Assembly: GCA_046861385.1 (NCBI GenBank)
Contig: JBHHTW010000009.1
Location: 1-64,000 of the forward strand
Direction: 5' to 3'
DNA: 64,000 nucleotides
From: Fidelibacterota bacterium
GTDB taxonomy: Bacteria > Fidelibacterota > Marinisomatia > Marinisomatales > TCS55
The notes under the pieces are model-generated. The model was given only the letters and a program-made list of their open reading frames with translations, did no database searches and was not told the DNA's origin. Position numbers and translations under genes: made by a program. This document shows positions 37,852 through 47,933 of this stretch, in pieces. The stretch's first letter is position 1. Each line of letters begins with the position of its first letter.

Positions 37852-39204
37852 ATGAATATGGAATCTCCATTAAGTAACCATCGGTTAGAAACACAGTTTA
37901 AAGATTCAAAACCATTGTATTCCGAATCTGAAGCAAGGATTGAAGCCAACCGTTGCCTCTATTGTTATGACGCGCCTTGTATTAAAGCCTGCCCTACAGG
38001 AATTGATATTCCGGGATTTATTCGAAAAATTGCTTCAGGCAATATTCGGGGATCTGCCCAAACCATTTTTCAATCAAATATATTGGGCTCTTCCACGGCC
38101 AGAGTATGTCCGGTGGAAGAATTATGTGCCGGAGCCTGTGTATACAATGACCTGGATCATCACCCAATTCAAATCGGTCGTCTGCAACGATTCGCAACCC
38201 AACGGGCTCTTGAATTAGAAAAAAATAGCCAAAGACCTCTCTTCATACCACTCCCGAAAATAAATAAAAAAGTGGCTCTCATTGGAGCCGGACCTGCCTC
38301 ATTGGCCTGTGGTGCCTATCTCGCTTTGGAAGGCGTTGAAGCGGTCATTTTTGAAAAATCCCAAATACCGGGTGGTTTAAATGTTTCTGGTATTGCTCCT
38401 TACAAATTCATGGCACAGGACGGAATGAACGAAATTCATTGGTTGCAACAATTTGGAATAACGATTCATACGGGTGTTAATATTGGGAAGGATGTAAAAG
38501 TAAAGGATCTTTTGACAGAATATCATGCTGTTTTTCTTGGAATCGGATTGGGGCATGATTCTTTTCCTAAAATTCCAGGGGAAGAACTGGAAAATGTATG
38601 GGGTGCTACCAATTTAATCAGGAGAATTAAAAATGATCCTGATTTTGATCTGCCTAAAAACCTGAAAAAAGTTATTGTAGTCGGTGGTGGAAACACGGCT
38701 ATTGATATCGCCAGAGAACTGGCCATACTTGGCGTACCTGAAGTCGATATTGTCTATCGAAGGACAGAAGATGTCATGCCCGGGTATCACCACGAGCTGG
38801 TTCTTGCCAAAGCAAATGGCGTACGTCTGGTGGAAAAACAAACGCCGGTAAAAATATTAAAAAAGGAAGATGGGACACTGGAGTTTTTCACAAAACATAC
38901 CGATACAAAATCACCAATGATTCATCAGACCGATTGGATAGTCATGGCCATTGGTCAATCAAAAATCGCCCGGGATTTGGTTCCCCGTTTGGCCGTAGAT
39001 GAAAAAGGCCGGGTGTCGGTTGATGACGACACGGGGGAAACATCGATTCCGGGACTTTATGCCGGTGGAGATTGTATCAATGGCGGAAAAGAAGTGGTGA
39101 ATGCCTCCGCTGACGGCAGAGATGCCGCTCATGCCATGTTAAAAAGTTGGGGAATGACCCCCGTTTTTACAAACCCTAAATTCAGGAGCAATGGAAATGG
39201 CTGA
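37852..39204 (+). CDS. preT: Dihydropyrimidine dehydrogenase subunit PreT
   Basis: RCLYCYDAPCIKACP, RVCPVEELC, GAGPA, GGGNTAID. Confidence 0.92.
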   Translation: MNMESPLSNHRLETQFKDSKPLYSESEARIEANRCLYCYDAPCIKACPTGIDIPGFIRKIASGNIRGSAQTIFQSNILGSSTARVCPVEELCAGACVYNDLDHHPIQIGRLQRFATQRALELEKNSQRPLFIPLPKINKKVALIGAGPASLACGAYLALEGVEAVIFEKSQIPGGLNVSGIAPYKFMAQDGMNEIHWLQQFGITIHTGVNIGKDVKVKDLLTEYHAVFLGIGLGHDSFPKIPGEELENVWGATNLIRRIKNDPDFDLPKNLKKVIVVGGGNTAIDIARELAILGVPEVDIVYRRTEDVMPGYHHELVLAKANGVRLVEKQTPVKILKKEDGTLEFFTKHTDTKSPMIHQTDWIVMAIGQSKIARDLVPRLAVDEKGRVSVDDDTGETSIPGLYAGGDCINGGKEVVNASADGRDAAHAMLKSWGMTPVFTNPKFRSNGNG

Positions 39205-40540
39205 TTTATCAACAAATTTTTCCGGTATAAAAAGTCCTAATCCTTTCTGGCTGGCCTCCGGACCTCCCACCAATTGCGGTGAACAAATTATGCGGGCATT
39301 TGATGCCGGCTGGGGTGGTGCAGTCTGGAAAACGCTCGGCATCCCGGTGGTGAATGTTTCATCACGATTGGCGGCAGTCGATTATTCAGGAAATAAAATG
39401 TCCGGACTTAATAATATTGAGCTCATTACCGATCGGCCTTTAGAATCAAATTTTAAGGAAATCACCGAAGTAAAAAAACGCTATCCTGATCACGCAGTTA
39501 TTGTTTCTCTCATGGTGGAAAGTAAGGAGGAGTGGAAGGAAATAATACAGCGGTCGGAAGATGCCGGCGCCGATGGCCTTGAACTTAATTTTGGCTGTCC
39601 CCATGGGATGTGCGAACGGGGAATGGGTAGTTCTGTCGGTCAGGAGCCAAAAGTCCTGGAACTCATTACGTCTTGGGTAATGGAATATGCCCAAACGCCT
39701 GTTTTGGTGAAATTAACACCCAACACCGGTGACATTCTCATTCCTGGATTGGCGGCTGTCTCCGGTGGAGCTAATGGGATTTCTTTGATTAATACGATCA
39801 AATCCATCATTGGTGTCAATCTGGATACACTCGTGCCCATGCCCAATGTGGGTGGACAAAGTACCAACGGTGGATACTGTGGTCCGGCGGTAAAACCCAT
39901 TGCCCTTCATATGCTGTCTGCTTTGGCCCGGGAACCTAAAATAAATATTCCTGTCTCAGGGATCGGCGGTATATCCACATGGCAGGATGCAGCTGAATTT
40001 CTCGCTCTCGGGGCTACCAGTGTACAGGTTTGTACAGCCGTCATGCATTATGGCTATCGGATCGTGGAAGATCTCATCGACGGTCTATCTAACTATCTGG
40101 ATGATAAAGATATGAAATCTGTGAAAGGACTGATCGGGAAAGCTTCCAATCATGTTACCGATTGGGGAGATCTCGATTTGAATTTTGGTGTCGTTCCGAA
40201 AATTGATTCTGAAAAATGTATTGGTTGTCAACTATGTTATATAGCCTGCCTGGATGGCGCCCACCAGTGCATCCATACACGCCAAAACTTATGTTGGTCT
40301 TTTCACGGAACATCAGATCATGGGGTCAATCCACGGATAGAAGTGGGTCCCGCTGTGACCCATAAAACGGATGAACAATTACCAGATCATGTTCCTTTCG
40401 TAGACGAAGATGAATGTATTGGATGCAATTTATGCAGCCTGGTTTGTCCTGTTCCGGGATGCATTACCATGGAAGAAATTCCCCACTCTAAAGGGAAGGA
40501 ATCCTGGAATGAACGGGTAGCAAAGGGGTTGGATCAATAA
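39197..40540 (+). CDS. preA: Dihydropyrimidine dehydrogenase subunit PreA
   Basis: PNPFWLAS, NNIELI, LNFGCPHGMCERGMG, two 4Fe-4S motifs (CIGCQLC, CIGCNLC..CP). Confidence 0.95.
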   Translation: MADLSTNFSGIKSPNPFWLASGPPTNCGEQIMRAFDAGWGGAVWKTLGIPVVNVSSRLAAVDYSGNKMSGLNNIELITDRPLESNFKEITEVKKRYPDHAVIVSLMVESKEEWKEIIQRSEDAGADGLELNFGCPHGMCERGMGSSVGQEPKVLELITSWVMEYAQTPVLVKLTPNTGDILIPGLAAVSGGANGISLINTIKSIIGVNLDTLVPMPNVGGQSTNGGYCGPAVKPIALHMLSALAREPKINIPVSGIGGISTWQDAAEFLALGATSVQVCTAVMHYGYRIVEDLIDGLSNYLDDKDMKSVKGLIGKASNHVTDWGDLDLNFGVVPKIDSEKCIGCQLCYIACLDGAHQCIHTRQNLCWSFHGTSDHGVNPRIEVGPAVTHKTDEQLPDHVPFVDEDECIGCNLCSLVCPVPGCITMEEIPHSKGKESWNERVAKGLDQ

Positions 40541-40553
40541 GTAATACTAGCAT

Positions 40554-41339
40554 TTAAATCATTTCAATTAATGTTCTGATATTTTCAAAAGCTTTGTTGA
40601 CGTCATAGTCAATGTCACTTCGAATAAAATTATCAATATCATGACAAAATATTGGGTCTTTCAATTTATTTTCAAGATTGACAAGATATTGACTTGCTAT
40701 AACTGAATGACCTCCAAATTGCATATACTCATTAAAGGACTTAATAATATCCTCATACTTTACGTCATGATGCCTTAACGCCCAATCAATATCAAATAAA
40801 TCCCGACCTTTCTTTCGTTGATAAAGAGCCCGCAGCTTGGTTCCAAGCAATTCCTGGAGTTCAAAAGTATTGAATACGCAAACACCAGTAAACCACTGCG
40901 ATTTAACTTCAAAATTCATTTTCTTAATTGGAAACACGCTAAAATGCTCTCTAGTATTAATCTCAATTTTAATTCGTTTCTTTCCTTCCGGATCAGATTC
41001 AGGTGTAAATGAATAATAGATTCGAAATCCATCTTTACGAGATTCTGTGCTACTTTTTCCAAGCCACGGGTCGATTGTATTTTGAATTGTTTTTACAATT
41101 TTCTTTATAGGACCTACGGTTATCTGAACAAAATCCAAATCTTCAGAATAACGAACCGGTGATGGGAAAAACAATTTATTAAGAGCCGTACCCCCACGAA
41201 AGATAAGTTGGTCTTTCAAAAATTCATTTTGATACAATTCAACAAGTATTCTGGATAAAATCAAATCCTGTTCAATCTGTTCATCTGCCACCCATGGAGC
41301 TGTATGCTGCCATTCAATCACGAATGCTCTCGGTATCAT
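40554..41339 (-). CDS. AbiEii/AbiGii nucleotidyltransferase toxin (type IV TA)
   Basis: QIEQDLIL, FRGGTAL, RYSEDLDF, KIEINTRE, KLRALYQRKKGRDLFD. Confidence 0.92.
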   Translation of the reverse strand: MIPRAFVIEWQHTAPWVADEQIEQDLILSRILVELYQNEFLKDQLIFRGGTALNKLFFPSPVRYSEDLDFVQITVGPIKKIVKTIQNTIDPWLGKSSTESRKDGFRIYYSFTPESDPEGKKRIKIEINTREHFSVFPIKKMNFEVKSQWFTGVCVFNTFELQELLGTKLRALYQRKKGRDLFDIDWALRHHDVKYEDIIKSFNEYMQFGGHSVIASQYLVNLENKLKDPIFCHDIDNFIRSDIDYDVNKAFENIRTLIEMI

Positions 41340-42109
41340 GAATCAAACTCCAATTCTTGATTGATAAACAACTTCCACCGAGGATGCTTGTTAATTCTTT
41401 CTCTGTTTCCGGAAGGATTCAAATATGCATAGATAATATTCTTTTGAGCGAAGTACTTATCCAAGCTGTTACAAATCTTGTCGAATCCTAATATTTCCAA
41501 AATATAAGATGCTCTTTGAACATAAGCATCAGGATAATGTTGTACTGTTTCAATGAATGATAGAGCAGATGTTTTTTCAACTAGTTCTGAAATCACTACT
41601 CCCACATGATCCAAACCTCCAATCTGTCGGTTGAATTCAACCAAATCCAACAATGTTGCTTCAGGTGTTGAAATATTTAAATATCCCGTTGCGGTATTAC
41701 GCTTTTTAATTGGAATAACAGCTGTATTCTTTTTGCGATAGAATAATATTTGATTTCGACCATTTTGAATATTACGCTTATCATAATTTGTTATCACTTG
41801 AAACGATTGTGGACTTTGATGGGAAGCACCATAGTAAGATGCTGCTGTTAATAGCCCAACATAATATGGTCTTGAATAATGCTTCATCAATGCATCAATA
41901 TATCGTTCCACGGGCAAGCGGTTTGTATATATATATTCTTCCGGTACAATAATATGAAATCCTCGAACAGGAGTTAGTACACGTCCATTCTTTCGAAGCA
42001 ATCTTAACTTATCCTTTGAAGGATACCCCAAATATTCAGTCATTTCCGTTGAAGAAAATGACCAAACACCCTTATTAATTAGTGTTTGTATGTAGTCTAA
42101 GTAGCCCAT
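41336..42109 (-). CDS. AbiEi-family antitoxin (type IV TA)
   Basis: YYVGLLTAASYYGASHQ, STPEATLLDL; ATGA overlap with the toxin gene. Confidence 0.9.
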   Translation of the reverse strand: MGYLDYIQTLINKGVWSFSSTEMTEYLGYPSKDKLRLLRKNGRVLTPVRGFHIIVPEEYIYTNRLPVERYIDALMKHYSRPYYVGLLTAASYYGASHQSPQSFQVITNYDKRNIQNGRNQILFYRKKNTAVIPIKKRNTATGYLNISTPEATLLDLVEFNRQIGGLDHVGVVISELVEKTSALSFIETVQHYPDAYVQRASYILEILGFDKICNSLDKYFAQKNIIYAYLNPSGNRERINKHPRWKLFINQELEFDS

Positions 42110-42159: not shown

Positions 42160-42212
42160 AGCATAATTACAATTTATTGTAAAAGGTTGTTTTAATTATT
42201 TCAAAATTTTTG

Positions 42213-42443
42213 GGCGAATCAGATCATGGCGTTAACCCCAGGATTGAACCGGGACCCGCCGTGACTCATGAAACCAATGGAACGATACCCGAACACGTCC
42301 CTTATGTGGATAAAGATGAATGTGTCGGCTGCAACCTATGCGGCTTAATTTGTCCTGTATCCGGTTGCATTACCATGGAAGAAATTCCACATTCTAAAGG
42401 GAAGGAATCCTGGAATGAACGGGTTGTAAAGGGAATGGGTTAA
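42213..42443 (+). pseudogene. Second, diverged copy of the preA 3' end (last 4Fe-4S motif)
   Basis: 59/76 aa identical by hand count to the PreA C-terminus (40307-40540); no RBS seen. Confidence 0.85.
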
Positions 42444-43515: not shown

Positions 43516-44418
43516 CTATTCCGGATAATCTGATTTATCGACGGGATAATATGGCATTTCCATGGGTCCGTCCTCATCACTCAGAAGAGAGTATAATAAA
43601 GAATCGGTCAAAATATTCCGGATATCTTCCTGACTATTCCTCAAGTCAACCGCCCGTTCCACTAACCGAATACCATGGCTGTAATCGGCATACCAGTTGA
43701 CATGACCGGCATACAACGGTTGGATAGGTTGTCCATTTAACCGGTGCCAGCCATAAATAACTACTTTGTCCTGATTTGCCAGGATTCGATTGGAAATTAT
43801 TACGTCCTTTTTATGTCCGGAAACTAAGGCTCCGAGTGGATTGGTACTGATAGATTGGTATCGTTGGTCATGGACAATGGTGTTATGATCAGCGAAAACC
43901 GGAATGGTTACCATGGCCGAGCTGGGGGGAATAGGACGGGGTTCCAGCTTTAAATCCCCTTGCTGCCAAATGGCATTGACCATTTTCCTTGTGGGAAGGG
44001 ACATGTGTAAAGAGTCGCCTAATTCCTGTGCCAGAATGGGCGTCATGGGTATGAGAAAATAATCCGCATCAGATCCAAGAGCCAGATAATCGCAGGTTGC
44101 ATAAAATATTGCTGTATCCACCAGGCCGTCTTTTGTTTTGGTGACGATTACCGGAACCAAATTCCTGATAAAATCAGGAATATTCCCTTCCAATATTTCC
44201 CTTTTAATTCGGCCCTCCCTCTCGCGAAGATTCAAAGAAGATAATACAGCAACCAGATCACTTCCGGTCAGTGCATCCGATAGACGCTCTGGTAAGGAAA
44301 TAACATGGTTGGTTTGAATGCCATTCAGGTTTTTGGTTTCACCGCTTTCATCATTCTGACAGCAAAGAGATGCAGCGATAAAAATAATTAAAATGGGTCT
44401 ATTACGTTTCAACATCAA
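43516..44418 (-). CDS. Hypothetical lipoprotein
   Basis: Lipobox-like SLCC; motif-rich core DYLALGSD, GHKKD, IYGWH, IQP, YADYSHG. Confidence 0.75.
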   Translation of the reverse strand: MMLKRNRPILIIFIAASLCCQNDESGETKNLNGIQTNHVISLPERLSDALTGSDLVAVLSSLNLREREGRIKREILEGNIPDFIRNLVPVIVTKTKDGLVDTAIFYATCDYLALGSDADYFLIPMTPILAQELGDSLHMSLPTRKMVNAIWQQGDLKLEPRPIPPSSAMVTIPVFADHNTIVHDQRYQSISTNPLGALVSGHKKDVIISNRILANQDKVVIYGWHRLNGQPIQPLYAGHVNWYADYSHGIRLVERAVDLRNSQEDIRNILTDSLLYSLLSDEDGPMEMPYYPVDKSDYPE

Positions 44419-44825
44419 CGATAGATTCGATTATTATGCATGAATTTAGCTCCGGATCCGGATAACCTTTATGAATAAGGTTCACGATTTTTCTTTATTG
44501 TATATCATGAGGGCTTTGATCTAATCACGATGTGAGCGTGATACCAACTGGGTTAGATTAATAATACTTTCAGAAGATTGCTAATTCAATAATGATTGAG
44601 TCCTCTTACAGGATGCCTGGACTTTTTATCAGGGAAAACCCGTCTGAATCATGGACGGATAACACAATGAGATCAGTATTGAACTATCCGGTTTTTTAAA
44701 ACAATCTCTATAATAATATATTTTGTTAACTTAATATTAATGAAACAATATTATTATTTATCCTCTTTTTACTGGAATTTTTGAAGAAAAGGCAAGCAGA
44801 AGAAAACTAATAATGATTTTATTAA

Positions 44826-45167
44826 ATGGGTAGAACATCTAACCTGAAAAAAGTTACAACAGGAATATTACTGGTGATCATGGGCATTTATTCCCATGAA
44901 TCAATGAGCCATCTGGGACATCCTCATTTCTATAGGGGAACAATATCCAGCGATTTGGATAATGGTTCAGTCTATGAAAATATTCAATTCTCTGAATTTG
45001 GAAAATGTCCCTGGAGCAAAGCTGGTTACCTTTTTCAAACCGCGTGTCCCCTGCTCGGTTCCCATCAAATCATTAATTCAGAAACAATCCTTCAGTTGCC
45101 TCAGGAATTTACTCCCCTTTCAGAAAAAATCCTTATTGAGTCACGAGCTCCCCCCGTTTTATCCTGA
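44826..45167 (+). CDS. Small His/Cys-containing upstream ORF ending in RAPP (DUF2946-like leader)
   Basis: Basic plus hydrophobic N-terminus, HESMSHLGHPH, two Cys, C-terminal ESRAPPVLS; first ORF of a metal-uptake operon. Confidence 0.7.
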   Translation: MGRTSNLKKVTTGILLVIMGIYSHESMSHLGHPHFYRGTISSDLDNGSVYENIQFSEFGKCPWSKAGYLFQTACPLLGSHQIINSETILQLPQEFTPLSEKILIESRAPPVLS

Positions 45168-45224
45168 TATTATTCTCATATCCCCTTTAGGGGACTATTT
45201 TTACCATTTTAAATCAGGAAACCT

Positions 45225-46208
45225 ATGTTTAAAAAAAATCTCTATCTAATAGTAATATTTAGTATGCTGACAGGTCAAACGACGGTGAACCCCAATATCA
45301 GTGCCATCGGGGATTTAATTTTGTCACATGATGAATCCAGTACTACTTTTTCTAATTCTGGATTAGAGTTGGCCTTTCAAGGTTATGTCAATCCCTTTGC
45401 CCGCGCCAACGTGTTTATTCATAAGCATGATAGTGAAGAGCCCACGGCTCTGGAAGAAGCGTTTTTGTCGGTAGACAGGGGACTTCCTCTTGGGTTACAG
45501 ATTCGGGCAGGGAGAATGAGGCCTGAATTTGGAAGGTTGAACCGGGAACATTCTCATCTCTGGCCTTACATACTTCCCTCTACACCAATGCAAAAAATTC
45601 TGGGGCCTGAATTATGGTCAGGAGTTGGCCTGGAACTCCGCTATCTTTTACCGTTTCCATGGTTCAGCAATATCACACTGGGAATTTTTCAAAATGGTAT
45701 TGAACTCTCTGAGGAAGAAGAAACAAGTACATTAGACAATACCGATCATCCTTCAGCCATTAATATGCGGTGGTCCAATTTTTTGGATTTCTCAGATATT
45801 ACCCACGGGGAATTAGGTATCAGCCTCTATCAATCAGATGGAGAAAACTTAATGGGATTAGATTACAAGTTAAAATGGCGTCCTGACACTTATCGATCCC
45901 TCTCCCTTAAGGGGGATATATTCTTCCGGAAAGGGGAGGGAGATACCACAGCCATAGTGGGATTATCAGTAATTAATGCTCAATTTAGTCGTATTTGGAA
46001 TCTGGGTGCCACTATTGACTACTTCCATCAGGAGGATCAATCCTCCTATGCTTCTGTCGGTGGATTCCTGGGATTCAGTCCGGCAGCTGAATCTTCTGTA
46101 CTACGGTTCATGGTTAAGCGAATTTTTCATGAAGGCGGAGATGATTCATGGCAGTTGGTTTCTCAATTGATATGGTCATTGGGCCCCCATAAACCACACA
46201 AATTTTAG
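45225..46208 (+). CDS. Outer-membrane beta-barrel associated with metal ABC uptake
   Basis: Signal peptide, NPNISAIGD, ELAFQGYVNPF, LEEAF, FGRLNREHSH, C-terminal LGPHKPHKF. Confidence 0.8.
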   Translation: MFKKNLYLIVIFSMLTGQTTVNPNISAIGDLILSHDESSTTFSNSGLELAFQGYVNPFARANVFIHKHDSEEPTALEEAFLSVDRGLPLGLQIRAGRMRPEFGRLNREHSHLWPYILPSTPMQKILGPELWSGVGLELRYLLPFPWFSNITLGIFQNGIELSEEEETSTLDNTDHPSAINMRWSNFLDFSDITHGELGISLYQSDGENLMGLDYKLKWRPDTYRSLSLKGDIFFRKGEGDTTAIVGLSVINAQFSRIWNLGATIDYFHQEDQSSYASVGGFLGFSPAAESSVLRFMVKRIFHEGGDDSWQLVSQLIWSLGPHKPHKF

Positions 46209-46213
46209 GAATA

Positions 46214-47101
46214 ATGCTGATGAAAAAAATTATTATAGTCTTTTCTATTTTATGGATGACCCTTGCCTGGGGAAAGGTTAGAATCGTCACCTCAATAACG
46301 GACATGGCTGATATTGCCGAGACAATCGGTGGAAACAATGTCTCGGTCACCAGCATTGCCAGAGGAAATCAAAATCCTCATTACGTGGAAGTTATGCCTT
46401 CATATATGTTAAAAGTACGCAAAGCTGATTTCTACCTCAAAATAGGAATGGATTTGGATTTATGGTCAGACCAAATTATTGATGGGTCAAGGAACCGCAA
46501 TATACAGGTGGTAGACTGCTCTCAGAATGTTCATCGATTGGAAGTGCCATCATCCAAAGTGGATGCCAGTCAGGGGGATGTGCATCGCATGGGGAATCCC
46601 CATTATTGGCTGGATCCGGCCAATGGGATCATTATTGCTGAAACCATTGCAAATGCCTTGATTTCAATTGATCCGAAGCATCGTGAAGAATATGAAAAAA
46701 ACTTGAACAAGTTCAAGAGTACGATAGAAGAAAAAATACGAATTTGGAATACGGAGTTTGCCGATCTCAAAGGGAAAAAAATCATATTTTATCATAATTC
46801 CTGGCCATATTTCAGTGAAAGTTTTGGATTGGATGTACGTCAGTTCTTAGAGCCAAAGCCTGGGATTACACCCTCTCCGTCTCACTTGGATAGGCTGATT
46901 CGCCTAATTGAGCAGGAGCACATTTCCGTTATTGCCATGGAACCCTATTTTAGTCCAAAAGCGCCTGAATTCTTGAAATCAAAAACAGGATCCCATGTGA
47001 TTGTTTTGGCCCAGTCGGTGGATGCTCTGCCTGAAGCTGACTCCTATGTAAAACTCTTTGAATCCAATTTGAAAAAACTTCAAGCAGTGTTGGGAGATTA
47101 A
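46214..47101 (+). CDS. Zn/Mn ABC substrate-binding protein (ZnuA/TroA family)
   Basis: NPHY, GDVH..GNPHYWLDP, YHNSWPYF, EPKPGI. Confidence 0.92.
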   Translation: MLMKKIIIVFSILWMTLAWGKVRIVTSITDMADIAETIGGNNVSVTSIARGNQNPHYVEVMPSYMLKVRKADFYLKIGMDLDLWSDQIIDGSRNRNIQVVDCSQNVHRLEVPSSKVDASQGDVHRMGNPHYWLDPANGIIIAETIANALISIDPKHREEYEKNLNKFKSTIEEKIRIWNTEFADLKGKKIIFYHNSWPYFSESFGLDVRQFLEPKPGITPSPSHLDRLIRLIEQEHISVIAMEPYFSPKAPEFLKSKTGSHVIVLAQSVDALPEADSYVKLFESNLKKLQAVLGD

Positions 47102-47102
47102 G

Positions 47103-47933
47103 ATGAATTTATATTTAGATTTAATCATTTGGCCATTCCTGGCAGCGGTCGTCATATCCGGAATTCACGTTTATCTTGGAATGCATGTCGTTTCGCGAGG
47201 TGTAATATTTGTGGATTTAGCCCTGGCGCAGATGGCTGCCTTGGGAACGGCTGTAGGGATACTCATTGGATTGGATCCCGCTTCCACCACGACCTTGGTT
47301 CTGGCAGTACTTTTTACATTGGTGGGGGCTGCCCTATTCGCCAGTATCCGGTCTATTTCCAATCGAATTCCTTCTGAAGCCATTATTGGAATTACGTATG
47401 TGGTGGCGGCTGCTCTCATGATCCTCCTATTTAGCCATTCTGCGGAGGGAGCTGAAGAAGTAAATCATCTTCTGGTCGGTTCAATATTATTTGTCACACC
47501 GCTTCAGGTAGGGGAAATATTCATCATATATTCGATCATCGGTCTTTTCCATTATCGATTCAGACACCAATTCATGGCCACATCCCGTTTTCGATCTGAA
47601 AAACTTCCTCCACCTAAAAATATCCATCTATGGGATTTTCTATTTTACGTTACTTTCGGAATTGTCGTCACTCTCTCCGTTAAAATCGCCGGAGTGCTGC
47701 TGGTCTTTTCATTTCTAATTATTCCTTCAGTCGCTGCACTCTTTTTTATGGATTCTCCACTTCGACGAATGATTTACGGCTGGGTTTTTAGTTTAGCCGG
47801 AAGTGTATTGGGGATGTTTTTTTCCATTTTGTTTGATACACCGACCGGAACCACTGTGGTGGTAACATTGGGTCTTCTGCTTACGTTAAATACGTTAATT
47901 TACCTGTTGAAAAATAAACAGTTAAGTGGATAG
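47103..47933 (+). CDS. Zn/Mn ABC permease (ZnuB/ABC-3 family)
   Basis: HVYLGMHVVSRGVIFVDLALAQ, EAIIG, AGVLLVFSFLIIP. Confidence 0.92.
   Translation: MNLYLDLIIWPFLAAVVISGIHVYLGMHVVSRGVIFVDLALAQMAALGTAVGILIGLDPASTTTLVLAVLFTLVGAALFASIRSISNRIPSEAIIGITYVVAAALMILLFSHSAEGAEEVNHLLVGSILFVTPLQVGEIFIIYSIIGLFHYRFRHQFMATSRFRSEKLPPPKNIHLWDFLFYVTFGIVVTLSVKIAGVLLVFSFLIIPSVAALFFMDSPLRRMIYGWVFSLAGSVLGMFFSILFDTPTGTTVVVTLGLLLTLNTLIYLLKNKQLSG

Follow-up and report, generated by a model that had tools for sequence, protein, structure and literature searches.

A candidate arrest leader peptide with a conserved RAPP-type end heads a predicted zinc-type uptake operon in Marinisomatota

We analyzed a stretch of 64,000 nt (the window; positions 1 to 64,000 of contig JBHHTW010000009.1, assembly GCA_046861385.1) from a bacterium of the Marinisomatota, by which we mean the phylum also named Marinimicrobia or Fidelibacterota; the source genome measures 2.43 Mb and is 98% complete. 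An earlier note on this DNA had singled out an open reading frame (ORF) of 113 amino acids (aa) with the segment HESMSHLGHPH, two cysteines (Cys61 and Cys74) and a RAPP motif at 45144–45155, followed by a short hairpin and by genes for an outer-membrane protein, a ZnuA-like and a ZnuB-like protein. All of these coordinates and residues proved correct. The features of the locus, with conservation counts that refer to the 49 homologous leaders described below, are as follows (SD, Shine-Dalgarno sequence; RBS, ribosome-binding site; dN/dS, ratio of nonsynonymous to synonymous substitution rates).

44726..44754, + strand: promoter-like TTAACT-17-TATTAT of putative function, overlapping the first of two palindromes discussed below and reading TTGACT-17-TATTAT in the nearest relative
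44826..45167, + strand: leader ORF, 113 aa, candidate arrest peptide (reading frame, 49 aligned homologs, dN/dS 0.22)
44826..44909, + strand: signal-like segment, residues 1–28, a helix at 4–28 in the AlphaFold model, with predicted cleavage at S-M-S before H29
44910..44927, + strand: His cluster H29-L-G-H32-P-H34 (H34 in 48/49, H29 in 36/49, H32 in 29/49)
45006..45008, + strand: Cys61, 45 residues before R107
45144..45155, + strand: RAPP, putative arrest motif R107–P110 (R and last P invariant in the 49 leaders)
45162..45168, + strand: anti-SD TCCTGAT across the leader stop codon, predicted to pair with 45213–45219 (cognate excess across loci)
45181..45194, + strand: inner hairpin TCCCC-TTTA-GGGGA, nested in the anti-SD helix (intergenic hairpin in 33/49 loci)
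45213..45219, + strand: ATCAGGA, RBS of the porin gene, from sequence
45225..46208, + strand: predicted plug-less 16-strand porin, 327 aa (AlphaFold-type fold prediction and homologs)
46214..47101, + strand: ZnuA-family solute-binding protein (PF01297) with a His/His/His site, the only PF01297 gene in the genome
47103..47933, + strand: ABC-3 (ZnuB-type) permease (PF00950), with no ATPase gene in the operon

The leader opens with a basic start and a hydrophobic helix followed by small residues at −3 and −1, a signal-like pattern, and it closes with SRAPPVLS, such that only VLS separates RAPP from the stop codon. The AlphaFold model of the leader, which is of low confidence (pLDDT 63, pTM 0.33), contains just two helices, the N-terminal one and a short one that follows Cys61. 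Among the 9,322 six-frame ORFs of this genome, two of 70–220 aa end in RAPP, and a gene follows only this leader; a search with the family profile detected no second copy in the genome.

To establish how widely this arrangement is kept, we searched 301 genomes of the phylum with the porin, which matched in 66, and compared 59 loci; these come from 58 genomes, the source genome included, of which 57 belong to the 66 with a match and one was added. A ZnuA-like gene lies next to the porin in 53 of the 59 loci, and in 49 of these 53 the operon is headed by a leader with an R-x-P-P-type end (48 found by script and one, L062, by inspecting frames). A further locus, L045, carries a leader, and its sequence ends before ZnuA would be reached. 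The five porin paralogs without ZnuA (L009, L010, L015, L050, and L054, two of them near a contig start) have no leader; these paralogs end in H-K/R-P-x-R-Y, and three of them (L009, L010, and L015) lie ahead of a long TPR-like gene. Two leaderless porin-ZnuA operons (L046 and L055) encode porins that end in GPHSHPLE, and the frames upstream of them look like the complementary strand of a divergent gene that may encode a regulator.

The motifs that close the 49 leaders are RAPP (33), RGPP (8), RASP (4), RSPP (3), and RVPP (1), positioned 1–10 residues before the stop. Fujiwara et al. (PMC12992588) describe R+GPP and R+APP as two robust arrest cores, and 41 of the 49 leaders carry one of them. 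Mean column identity across the alignment is only 24%, against which the spacing between a cysteine and the R of the motif stands out: it is 42–49 residues in all 49 leaders and 45–47 in 42. That cysteine corresponds to Cys61, whereas Cys74 is private to this genome and its nearest relative. A CxxxC motif further upstream occurs in 29 of the 49 leaders and is missing in this genome and its nearest relative; CxxC is found in just two, the present leader reading C61-P-W-S. The description of the leader in the earlier note as a His-based variant without CxxC therefore holds for the lack of CxxC but not for a purely His-based site, given the cysteine at fixed distance (49/49) and the CxxxC (29/49). 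In six leaders (L011, L014, L021, L045, L047, and L049), C-x-W is replaced by H-x-x-C, with His at −46 and Cys at −43 or −42, and four of these end in RASP; next to CxxC and single Cys, this is a third ligand arrangement. Among the 24 leaders that fit the His pattern, 21 have small residues at −3 and −1 relative to the first His, and cleavage of the signal is therefore predicted to leave an N-terminal His.

The dN/dS value of 0.22 between the leader and its nearest relative is close to that of the porin (0.19), and dN/dS lies between 0.09 and 0.33 in 11 of 13 computable pairs, with one further pair saturated. Judged from these rates, the leader is under purifying selection. A conserved leader with a RAPP-type end, a signal-like start and a His cluster thus heads this metal-uptake operon, akin to CruR and CutF, as the earlier note had proposed.

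The note had also listed a TCCCC-TTTA-GGGGA hairpin. The hairpin is present at 45181–45194, but in the predicted fold of 45140–45240 it is only the inner part of a longer-range structure, in which TCCTGAT pairs with ATCAGGA and encloses it. When the segment from the RAPP codons to 24 nt beyond was paired in silico with the porin RBS in the 49 loci, cognate duplexes averaged −10.5 kcal/mol and non-cognate ones −8.3 kcal/mol, and cognate pairing exceeded the locus's own non-cognate mean in 37 loci. The cognate excess corresponds to z = −7.2 overall, −6.2 with post-RAPP bases only, and −7.3 in the 29 leaders below 40% identity, with a pairing peak at the RAPP codons; six upstream control windows gave |z| ≤ 1.7. 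Ordinary gene pairs of this genome (120 of 164) showed no cognate excess (−5.16 vs −5.23), and the present locus falls in the top 4% of these 120 for pairing. The regulatory RNA element is thus likely the long-range anti-SD:SD helix rather than the named hairpin, as far as folding and comparison can tell. An intrinsic terminator at 45181–45194 was rejected as the main switch: the stem has 5 bp, 1.4 such stems are expected by chance in the region, and a U-run occurs in 7 of the 33 hairpin loci. A search with Rfam over 44300–45400 returned no known riboswitch, only one chance hit (21 bits against a cut-off of 90).

We then modeled a stalled ribosome as a 30-nt footprint whose P site holds the first Pro, the stall register being taken from PMC10951233. 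The opening energy of the RBS averaged 7.15 with the footprint at the stall and 9.6 without it, compared with 8.8–8.9 for a footprint placed 15–30 nt upstream. Blocking the full region gave a larger drop (9.5 to 5.5), but any block of upstream bases helps, which biases this test, and we relied on the footprint control instead. The gap between leader and porin is 57 nt here and 29–124 nt in 48 of the 49 loci. In addition, C exceeds G in the 120 nt before the R in 44 of the 49 leaders (mean skew +0.21; +0.36 in this one), and Rho is encoded in this genome; Rho may therefore add to the off state.

The first gene behind the leader matches no Pfam or NCBIfam family, and the same holds for the leader itself. 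Homologs of this protein are labeled TonB-dependent receptors, which have 22 strands and a plug; that identity was rejected for a 327-aa protein whose model (pLDDT 90.5) is a 16-strand barrel without a plug. Its nearest solved folds are OmpU, OmpT, OprP, and Omp32 (9–13% identity), i.e., general and specific porins, and the homologs labeled receptors are accordingly predicted to be porins, which would correct the database label. In 105 homologs, H109 and H322 never vary, and H111 and H325 hardly do. A related-locus search with the porin returned the nearest relative only.

The binding protein has its best solved match in a cyanobacterial ZnuA. The three main positions are each His wherever a row spans them, with an additional conserved His in GD[IV]H, and the fourth position is Gln, Pro, Tyr, Ser, or another residue, never the Asp that MntA has there; we take the ligand roles of these residues to be those familiar from the family. 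Manganese-type cluster A-I binding proteins (MntC/PsaA) use a His-His-Glu-Asp set. Since the third position is His and the fourth is not Asp in the covering rows, a manganese-type site was rejected. Of the zinc or manganese uptake assigned to the operon by the earlier note, the zinc-type half fits the binding-site residues, which disfavor manganese. A ZnuC-type gene was not evident in 18 other loci with downstream DNA, either. An ATPase with its own small permease directly follows the operon in two loci and lies nearby in two more, an arrangement that we take to be FetAB-like.

Leaders of this family also occur in front of other genes. The leader profile matches 97 of the 301 genomes, and we compared 40 further loci holding 42 leaders. 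A His-rich lipoprotein, mostly followed by a TonB receptor, stands behind 29 of the 42; the others precede a TonB-type receptor directly (5), a MerC-family gene (2), an ABC ATPase with a DUF3526 permease (2), or a small barrel (1), or run into contig ends (3). When seven receptors from the lipoprotein operons were scanned, ZnuD was the best NCBIfam hit in six, always below the cut-off, and the copper-receptor model scored far below ZnuD. Two loci, L113 (G238) and L114 (G233), hold two leaders on opposite strands, one before a lipoprotein and a ZnuD-like receptor and the other before a MerC-family gene. The His/His/His site, the ZnuA structure match, the "zinc-regulated" porin homolog, and the ZnuD-like receptors behind further leaders all point to zinc as the likely substrate, so far as homology can indicate it.

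Is the operon also under a transcriptional metalloregulator? The two AT-rich palindromes that the earlier note took as Fur/Zur-like (44738–44756 and 44808–44824) do not bear this out: they are self-complementary at 12 of 19 and 12 of 17 positions, and 41–80% of shuffled sequences match five published boxes equally well. Against the lineage's own Fur and PerR boxes, they score −5.9 and 1.1 (thresholds 22.7 and 18), and the nearest relative does not retain the second. Two Fur-family genes are present in the genome; the neighbor of one is feoAB and that of the other ahpC, and their best models are Fur and PerR, with a low Zur score for both; no DtxR or Zur-like gene was found in this 98% complete genome. 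The 53 porin-ZnuA genomes yielded 100 Fur-family matches, and a quick tree without named references, built from 90 of them and the genome's own two, separated a Fur clade of 44 (37 beside feoA/feoB), a PerR clade of 41 (31 beside ahpC), and 7 outsiders, three of which are unclassified. No Zur-like gene was recognized among the 92, and none has znuA or znuB beside it within the stretches compared.

Seeded from the genome's own loci, operator candidates were derived upstream of fur-feoAB (ATTGAGACTnAGTCTCAAT) and of perR-ahpC (ATAGTAATnATTACTAT). The former, from L063 and 43 other Fur loci, differs from the Escherichia coli box; the latter comes from L064 and 39 other PerR loci. Neither a Fur nor a PerR box is present before any of the 48 leaders with enough upstream DNA, and Fur, Zur, or PerR operators before the leader were rejected, though a regulator of some other kind may act. 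In 14 of the 49 loci, the leader start lies no more than 60 nt from the end of another ORF on the same strand (about three of these ORFs look spurious), which leaves little room for an operator there.

Leaders of this kind are known. CruR (Bp2923, DUF2946/PF11162), which precedes bfrG in Bordetella pertussis, requires RAPP, CxxC, and their 45-residue spacing, and copper relieves its arrest, after which Rho terminates transcription (Roy et al., PMC9426467). CruR and the present leader both carry an export signal (predicted for the latter from its signal-like start) and head a metal-uptake operon, both place RAPP three residues before the stop, both have 45 residues between Cys (C93 in CruR, Cys61 here) and RAPP, and both are expected to act with the same sign, metal relieving arrest. 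They differ in that CruR has CxxC and a PF11162 domain and controls a TonB receptor-PepSY operon for copper across a 162-nt gap through Rho termination, whereas here a single Cys with a His cluster and no PF11162 match precedes porin-ZnuA-ZnuB, a likely zinc operon, across 57 nt with an anti-SD. By the features that define the CruR family, the leader thus has RAPP ~45 residues from Cys but neither CxxC nor a copper-homeostasis operon, its neighbors being ZnuA/ZnuB-family genes.

CutF of Rhodobacter capsulatus has a signal peptide, a CxxxC (not the CxxC that the earlier note had ascribed to it), and a stem that hides the cutO SD; copper causes its stall (PMC9973294; bioRxiv 10.1101/2025.02.05.636593). 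Thousands of CutF-like leaders are known, and among them are His-only ones that precede HupE/UreJ nickel/cobalt genes (PMC9973294). Like them, the present leader is shorter than 150 aa (113 aa), has PP within 15 residues of the C terminus (3 residues before the stop), and is followed at a short distance by a predicted stem over the next SD, which co-varies across loci and is weak in this genome. The CutF CxxxC is found in the 29 relatives mentioned above but not in this copy. CutF ends in PPP and is stalled by copper to induce a detoxification enzyme; the cargo here is for uptake, so the sign should be opposite. ApdA, ApdP, and SecM (PMC10951233) share the RAP/P core, a signal-like start, and an RBS-hiding helix, but they precede sec or yidC genes and lack a conserved His/Cys site, whereas this leader precedes the porin, PF01297, and PF00950 genes.

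By profile, the leader is not a DUF2946 protein, in answer to a question raised in the earlier note: PF11162 matches neither it nor any of the 49 leaders, and it matches in none of the 301 genomes. A search of 1.84 billion proteins with the leader profile returned 149 hits, 146 of them short; 138 of the short hits have an R-x-P-P-type end, and 66 have CxxC with its first Cys at the Cys61 position. Of 49 short hits that were scanned, 1 scored above the DUF2946 cut-off and 10 more below it. Given these distant hits, the leader is best placed, on profile evidence, as an offshoot of this broad group with a single Cys. An RPPP end, frequent in the branch to which the two-leader loci L113 and L114 belong, occurs in 18 of the 146. 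In a protein atlas, the nearest clusters are unnamed and the nearest named one is DUF6769/"DUF2946 domain" (0.94, 107 shared features), a lead only, with structure scores below the bar.

The anatomy of the leader, its conservation, the fixed distance from Cys to RAPP, the co-varying anti-SD, the porin fold, and the zinc-type site are established by sequence and comparison; the arrest, its sign, the compartment, and the metal we infer as follows. By analogy with ApdA, ApdP, and CruR, the ribosome would arrest with RAP in the P site (RAP/P), and its footprint would keep the anti-SD helix open, so that the porin would be translated along with the binding protein and permease, which are closely coupled to it. 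Available metal would bind the emerging His cluster and Cys61, and the chain would fold or be pulled, releasing the arrest; the helix would then close and the operon fall quiet, perhaps with subsequent Rho termination. Geometry suggests a stalled chain of 109 residues, with the His cluster 75–80 residues and Cys61 48 residues from the P site; the His cluster would therefore be exported and Cys61 would have only just left the tunnel or would sit in the translocon, a position at which metal-driven folding could pull on the chain. The sign, suggested by the uptake function, would be that of CruR, and the output would be RBS occlusion as in CutF and SecM. By this analogy, the operon is likely switched on when metal is scarce. 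We consider it very likely that the leader is a functional arrest leader and probable that it responds to metal; that zinc is the main signal we put slightly short of an even call. For the reading as a whole, in which RAPP arrest opens the porin RBS and metal, likely zinc, releases the stall and shuts the operon off, the balance tips modestly in favor.

Several observations weigh against this reading. Four porin-ZnuA loci (L042, L043, L046, and L055) have no leader, and the RASP, RSPP, and RVPP ends of 8 of the 49 leaders fall outside the arrest cores tested in the available part of PMC12992588. Two near-identical leader pairs have dN/dS values of 0.64 and 1.38. This leader has lost the CxxxC and the HH of most relatives, so its metal site may be degenerate. 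Twelve of the 49 loci show no cognate excess, a control with the RBS window shifted 60 nt into the porin gene still gave z = −3.7, and the z values overstate the case because the loci are kin. At the present locus, the RBS opening energy drops only from 5.1 to 4.4 kcal/mol, compared with a drop from 7.4 to 1.6 in the nearest relative, shuffled sequences are as stable as the local fold (z = −0.37), and 34% of non-cognate RBSs pair equally well with its anti-SD. Finally, the "zinc-regulated" receptor to which the porin is homologous owes that name to a database label, and a ZnuC model run over the genome reached at best 96 bits against a cut-off of 306, with no ATPase gene in the operon.

The same switch could respond to nickel, cobalt, copper, or several metals rather than zinc, which we regard as rather unlikely. 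The genome encodes NiSOD and hydrogenase maturation genes, with no NicO match, and predicted cleavage leaves an N-terminal His, a residue that also occurs in copper and nickel sites. CruR and CutF both sense copper (PMC9426467, PMC9973294), and HupE/UreJ nickel/cobalt genes are preceded by His-only leaders (PMC9973294). Conversely, the neighbors are ZnuA/ZnuB-family and ZnuD-like genes, the copper-receptor model falls far below ZnuD, and just 2 of 49 leaders have CxxC; 14 of the 49 operon genomes have no NiSOD or NiFe-hydrogenase-family match (other nickel enzymes were not searched). As a separate observation, four NiFe-hydrogenase large-subunit matches (G180:C16, G023:C48, G183:C13, and G015:C24) contain one in-frame TGA each, which fits selenocysteine-containing NiFeSe hydrogenases in Marinisomatota.

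The secretion sensing that the earlier note had offered as an option would mean that the leader stalls but monitors export, as SecM and ApdP do, or envelope folding, tuning the porin to Sec capacity without sensing metal. The signal-like start, RAPP, and RBS-hiding helix are indeed the anatomy of SecM and Apd leaders (PMC10951233), no other such leader was found in this genome, and candidate ligands are fewer in this copy than elsewhere in the family. The downstream genes are for metal uptake rather than sec or yidC, however, and the His cluster and fixed-distance Cys, unneeded for export monitoring, are kept while the rest diverges, which makes secretion sensing quite unlikely. A metal-responsive leader with CruR-like Rho-dependent termination as its main output and the anti-SD secondary is about equally improbable. 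The encoded Rho, the C-rich tract in 44 of 49 leaders, and the weak anti-SD helix of this locus fit it, but the C skew may come from Pro, Ser, and Leu codons, the gap is short (57 nt here, 29–124 nt in 48 of 49 loci) compared with 162 for cruR (PMC9426467), and cognate anti-SD pairing is conserved; termination by Rho and RBS occlusion are in any case compatible. Least credible of all is a small exported metal-binding protein (a chaperone or store) whose RAPP just slows synthesis, or a switch that is vestigial in this genome: the signal-like start, His/Cys ligands, weak helix, and CxxxC loss in this genus would suit it, but no stable fold is predicted (pLDDT 63, pTM 0.33), the leader is always first in its operon, its dN/dS equals that of the porin, and RAPP is kept 1–10 residues from the stop though bacteria avoid it (PMC12992588).

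Elsewhere in the window, a two-gene pair on the minus strand (40554–41339 and 41336–42109) looks AbiEii/AbiEi-like and is presumably a toxin-antitoxin system of that type. It lies between a dihydropyrimidine-dehydrogenase-like gene (39191–40540) and a diverged second copy of the last ~75 codons of that gene (42210–42443), which suggests that the pair inserted into the gene and that the 3′ end of the gene was duplicated in the process. In L243, a similar pair stands behind the permease.

The kind of element described here is already known from CruR, CutF, CutF-like leaders, and RAPP/RGPP upstream ORFs (uORFs) before metal genes, the last reported in PMC12992588. The earlier note knew of no description in this lineage, and our literature search, which left most subscription papers outside it, found no paper that describes this operon in Marinisomatota or an arrest peptide that senses zinc; RAPP leaders ahead of this porin class, by contrast, had already been tabulated in the 2025 supplement of PMC12992588, whose file 8 holds at least nine RAPP uORFs before "zinc-regulated" receptors, without discussion. 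Its rows include no Marinimicrobia among the matches listed, the available main text contains neither "zinc" nor "ZnuA" and no anti-SD or Zur analysis, and what it calls a receptor is here predicted to be a plug-less porin. The same file lists many short actinobacterial RAPP uORFs, ending LDVLRRSxDRAPP, before TraR/DksA C4 zinc-finger genes. ZnuA, PF01297, and Marinimicrobia gave no hits in the supplement text of PMC9426467 or in the short (8 kb) one of PMC9973294, which probably excludes its large neighbor table.

New here are the phylum-wide count, the single-Cys variant at fixed spacing, the controlled anti-SD co-variation, the porin fold, and the apparent absence of Zur. It is conceivable, if on balance unlikely, that Marinisomatota lack Zur and run zinc uptake via an arrest-peptide family in which one leader type, acting by RBS occlusion, gates porin-ZnuAB, lipoprotein-ZnuD-like, MerC-like, and DUF3526 transporters, with periplasmic zinc sensed by an N-terminal His cluster freed by signal cleavage and one Cys. 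In the literature found, metal sensing by a stalled nascent chain is shown for copper only; if true, this would give the first case of a nascent peptide that senses zinc, and a whole metalloregulator would have been replaced by post-transcriptional control. A zinc-type case with another ligand set, the sign of CruR, and the RNA output of CutF would show that the arrest chassis can be retuned to other metals, and the natural series, in which CxxC, HxxC, or a single Cys lies at a fixed distance from RAPP and CxxxC is present or absent, may show how metal binding becomes force on the ribosome. It would also explain how zinc-type uptake is controlled in an abundant marine lineage without an evident Zur.

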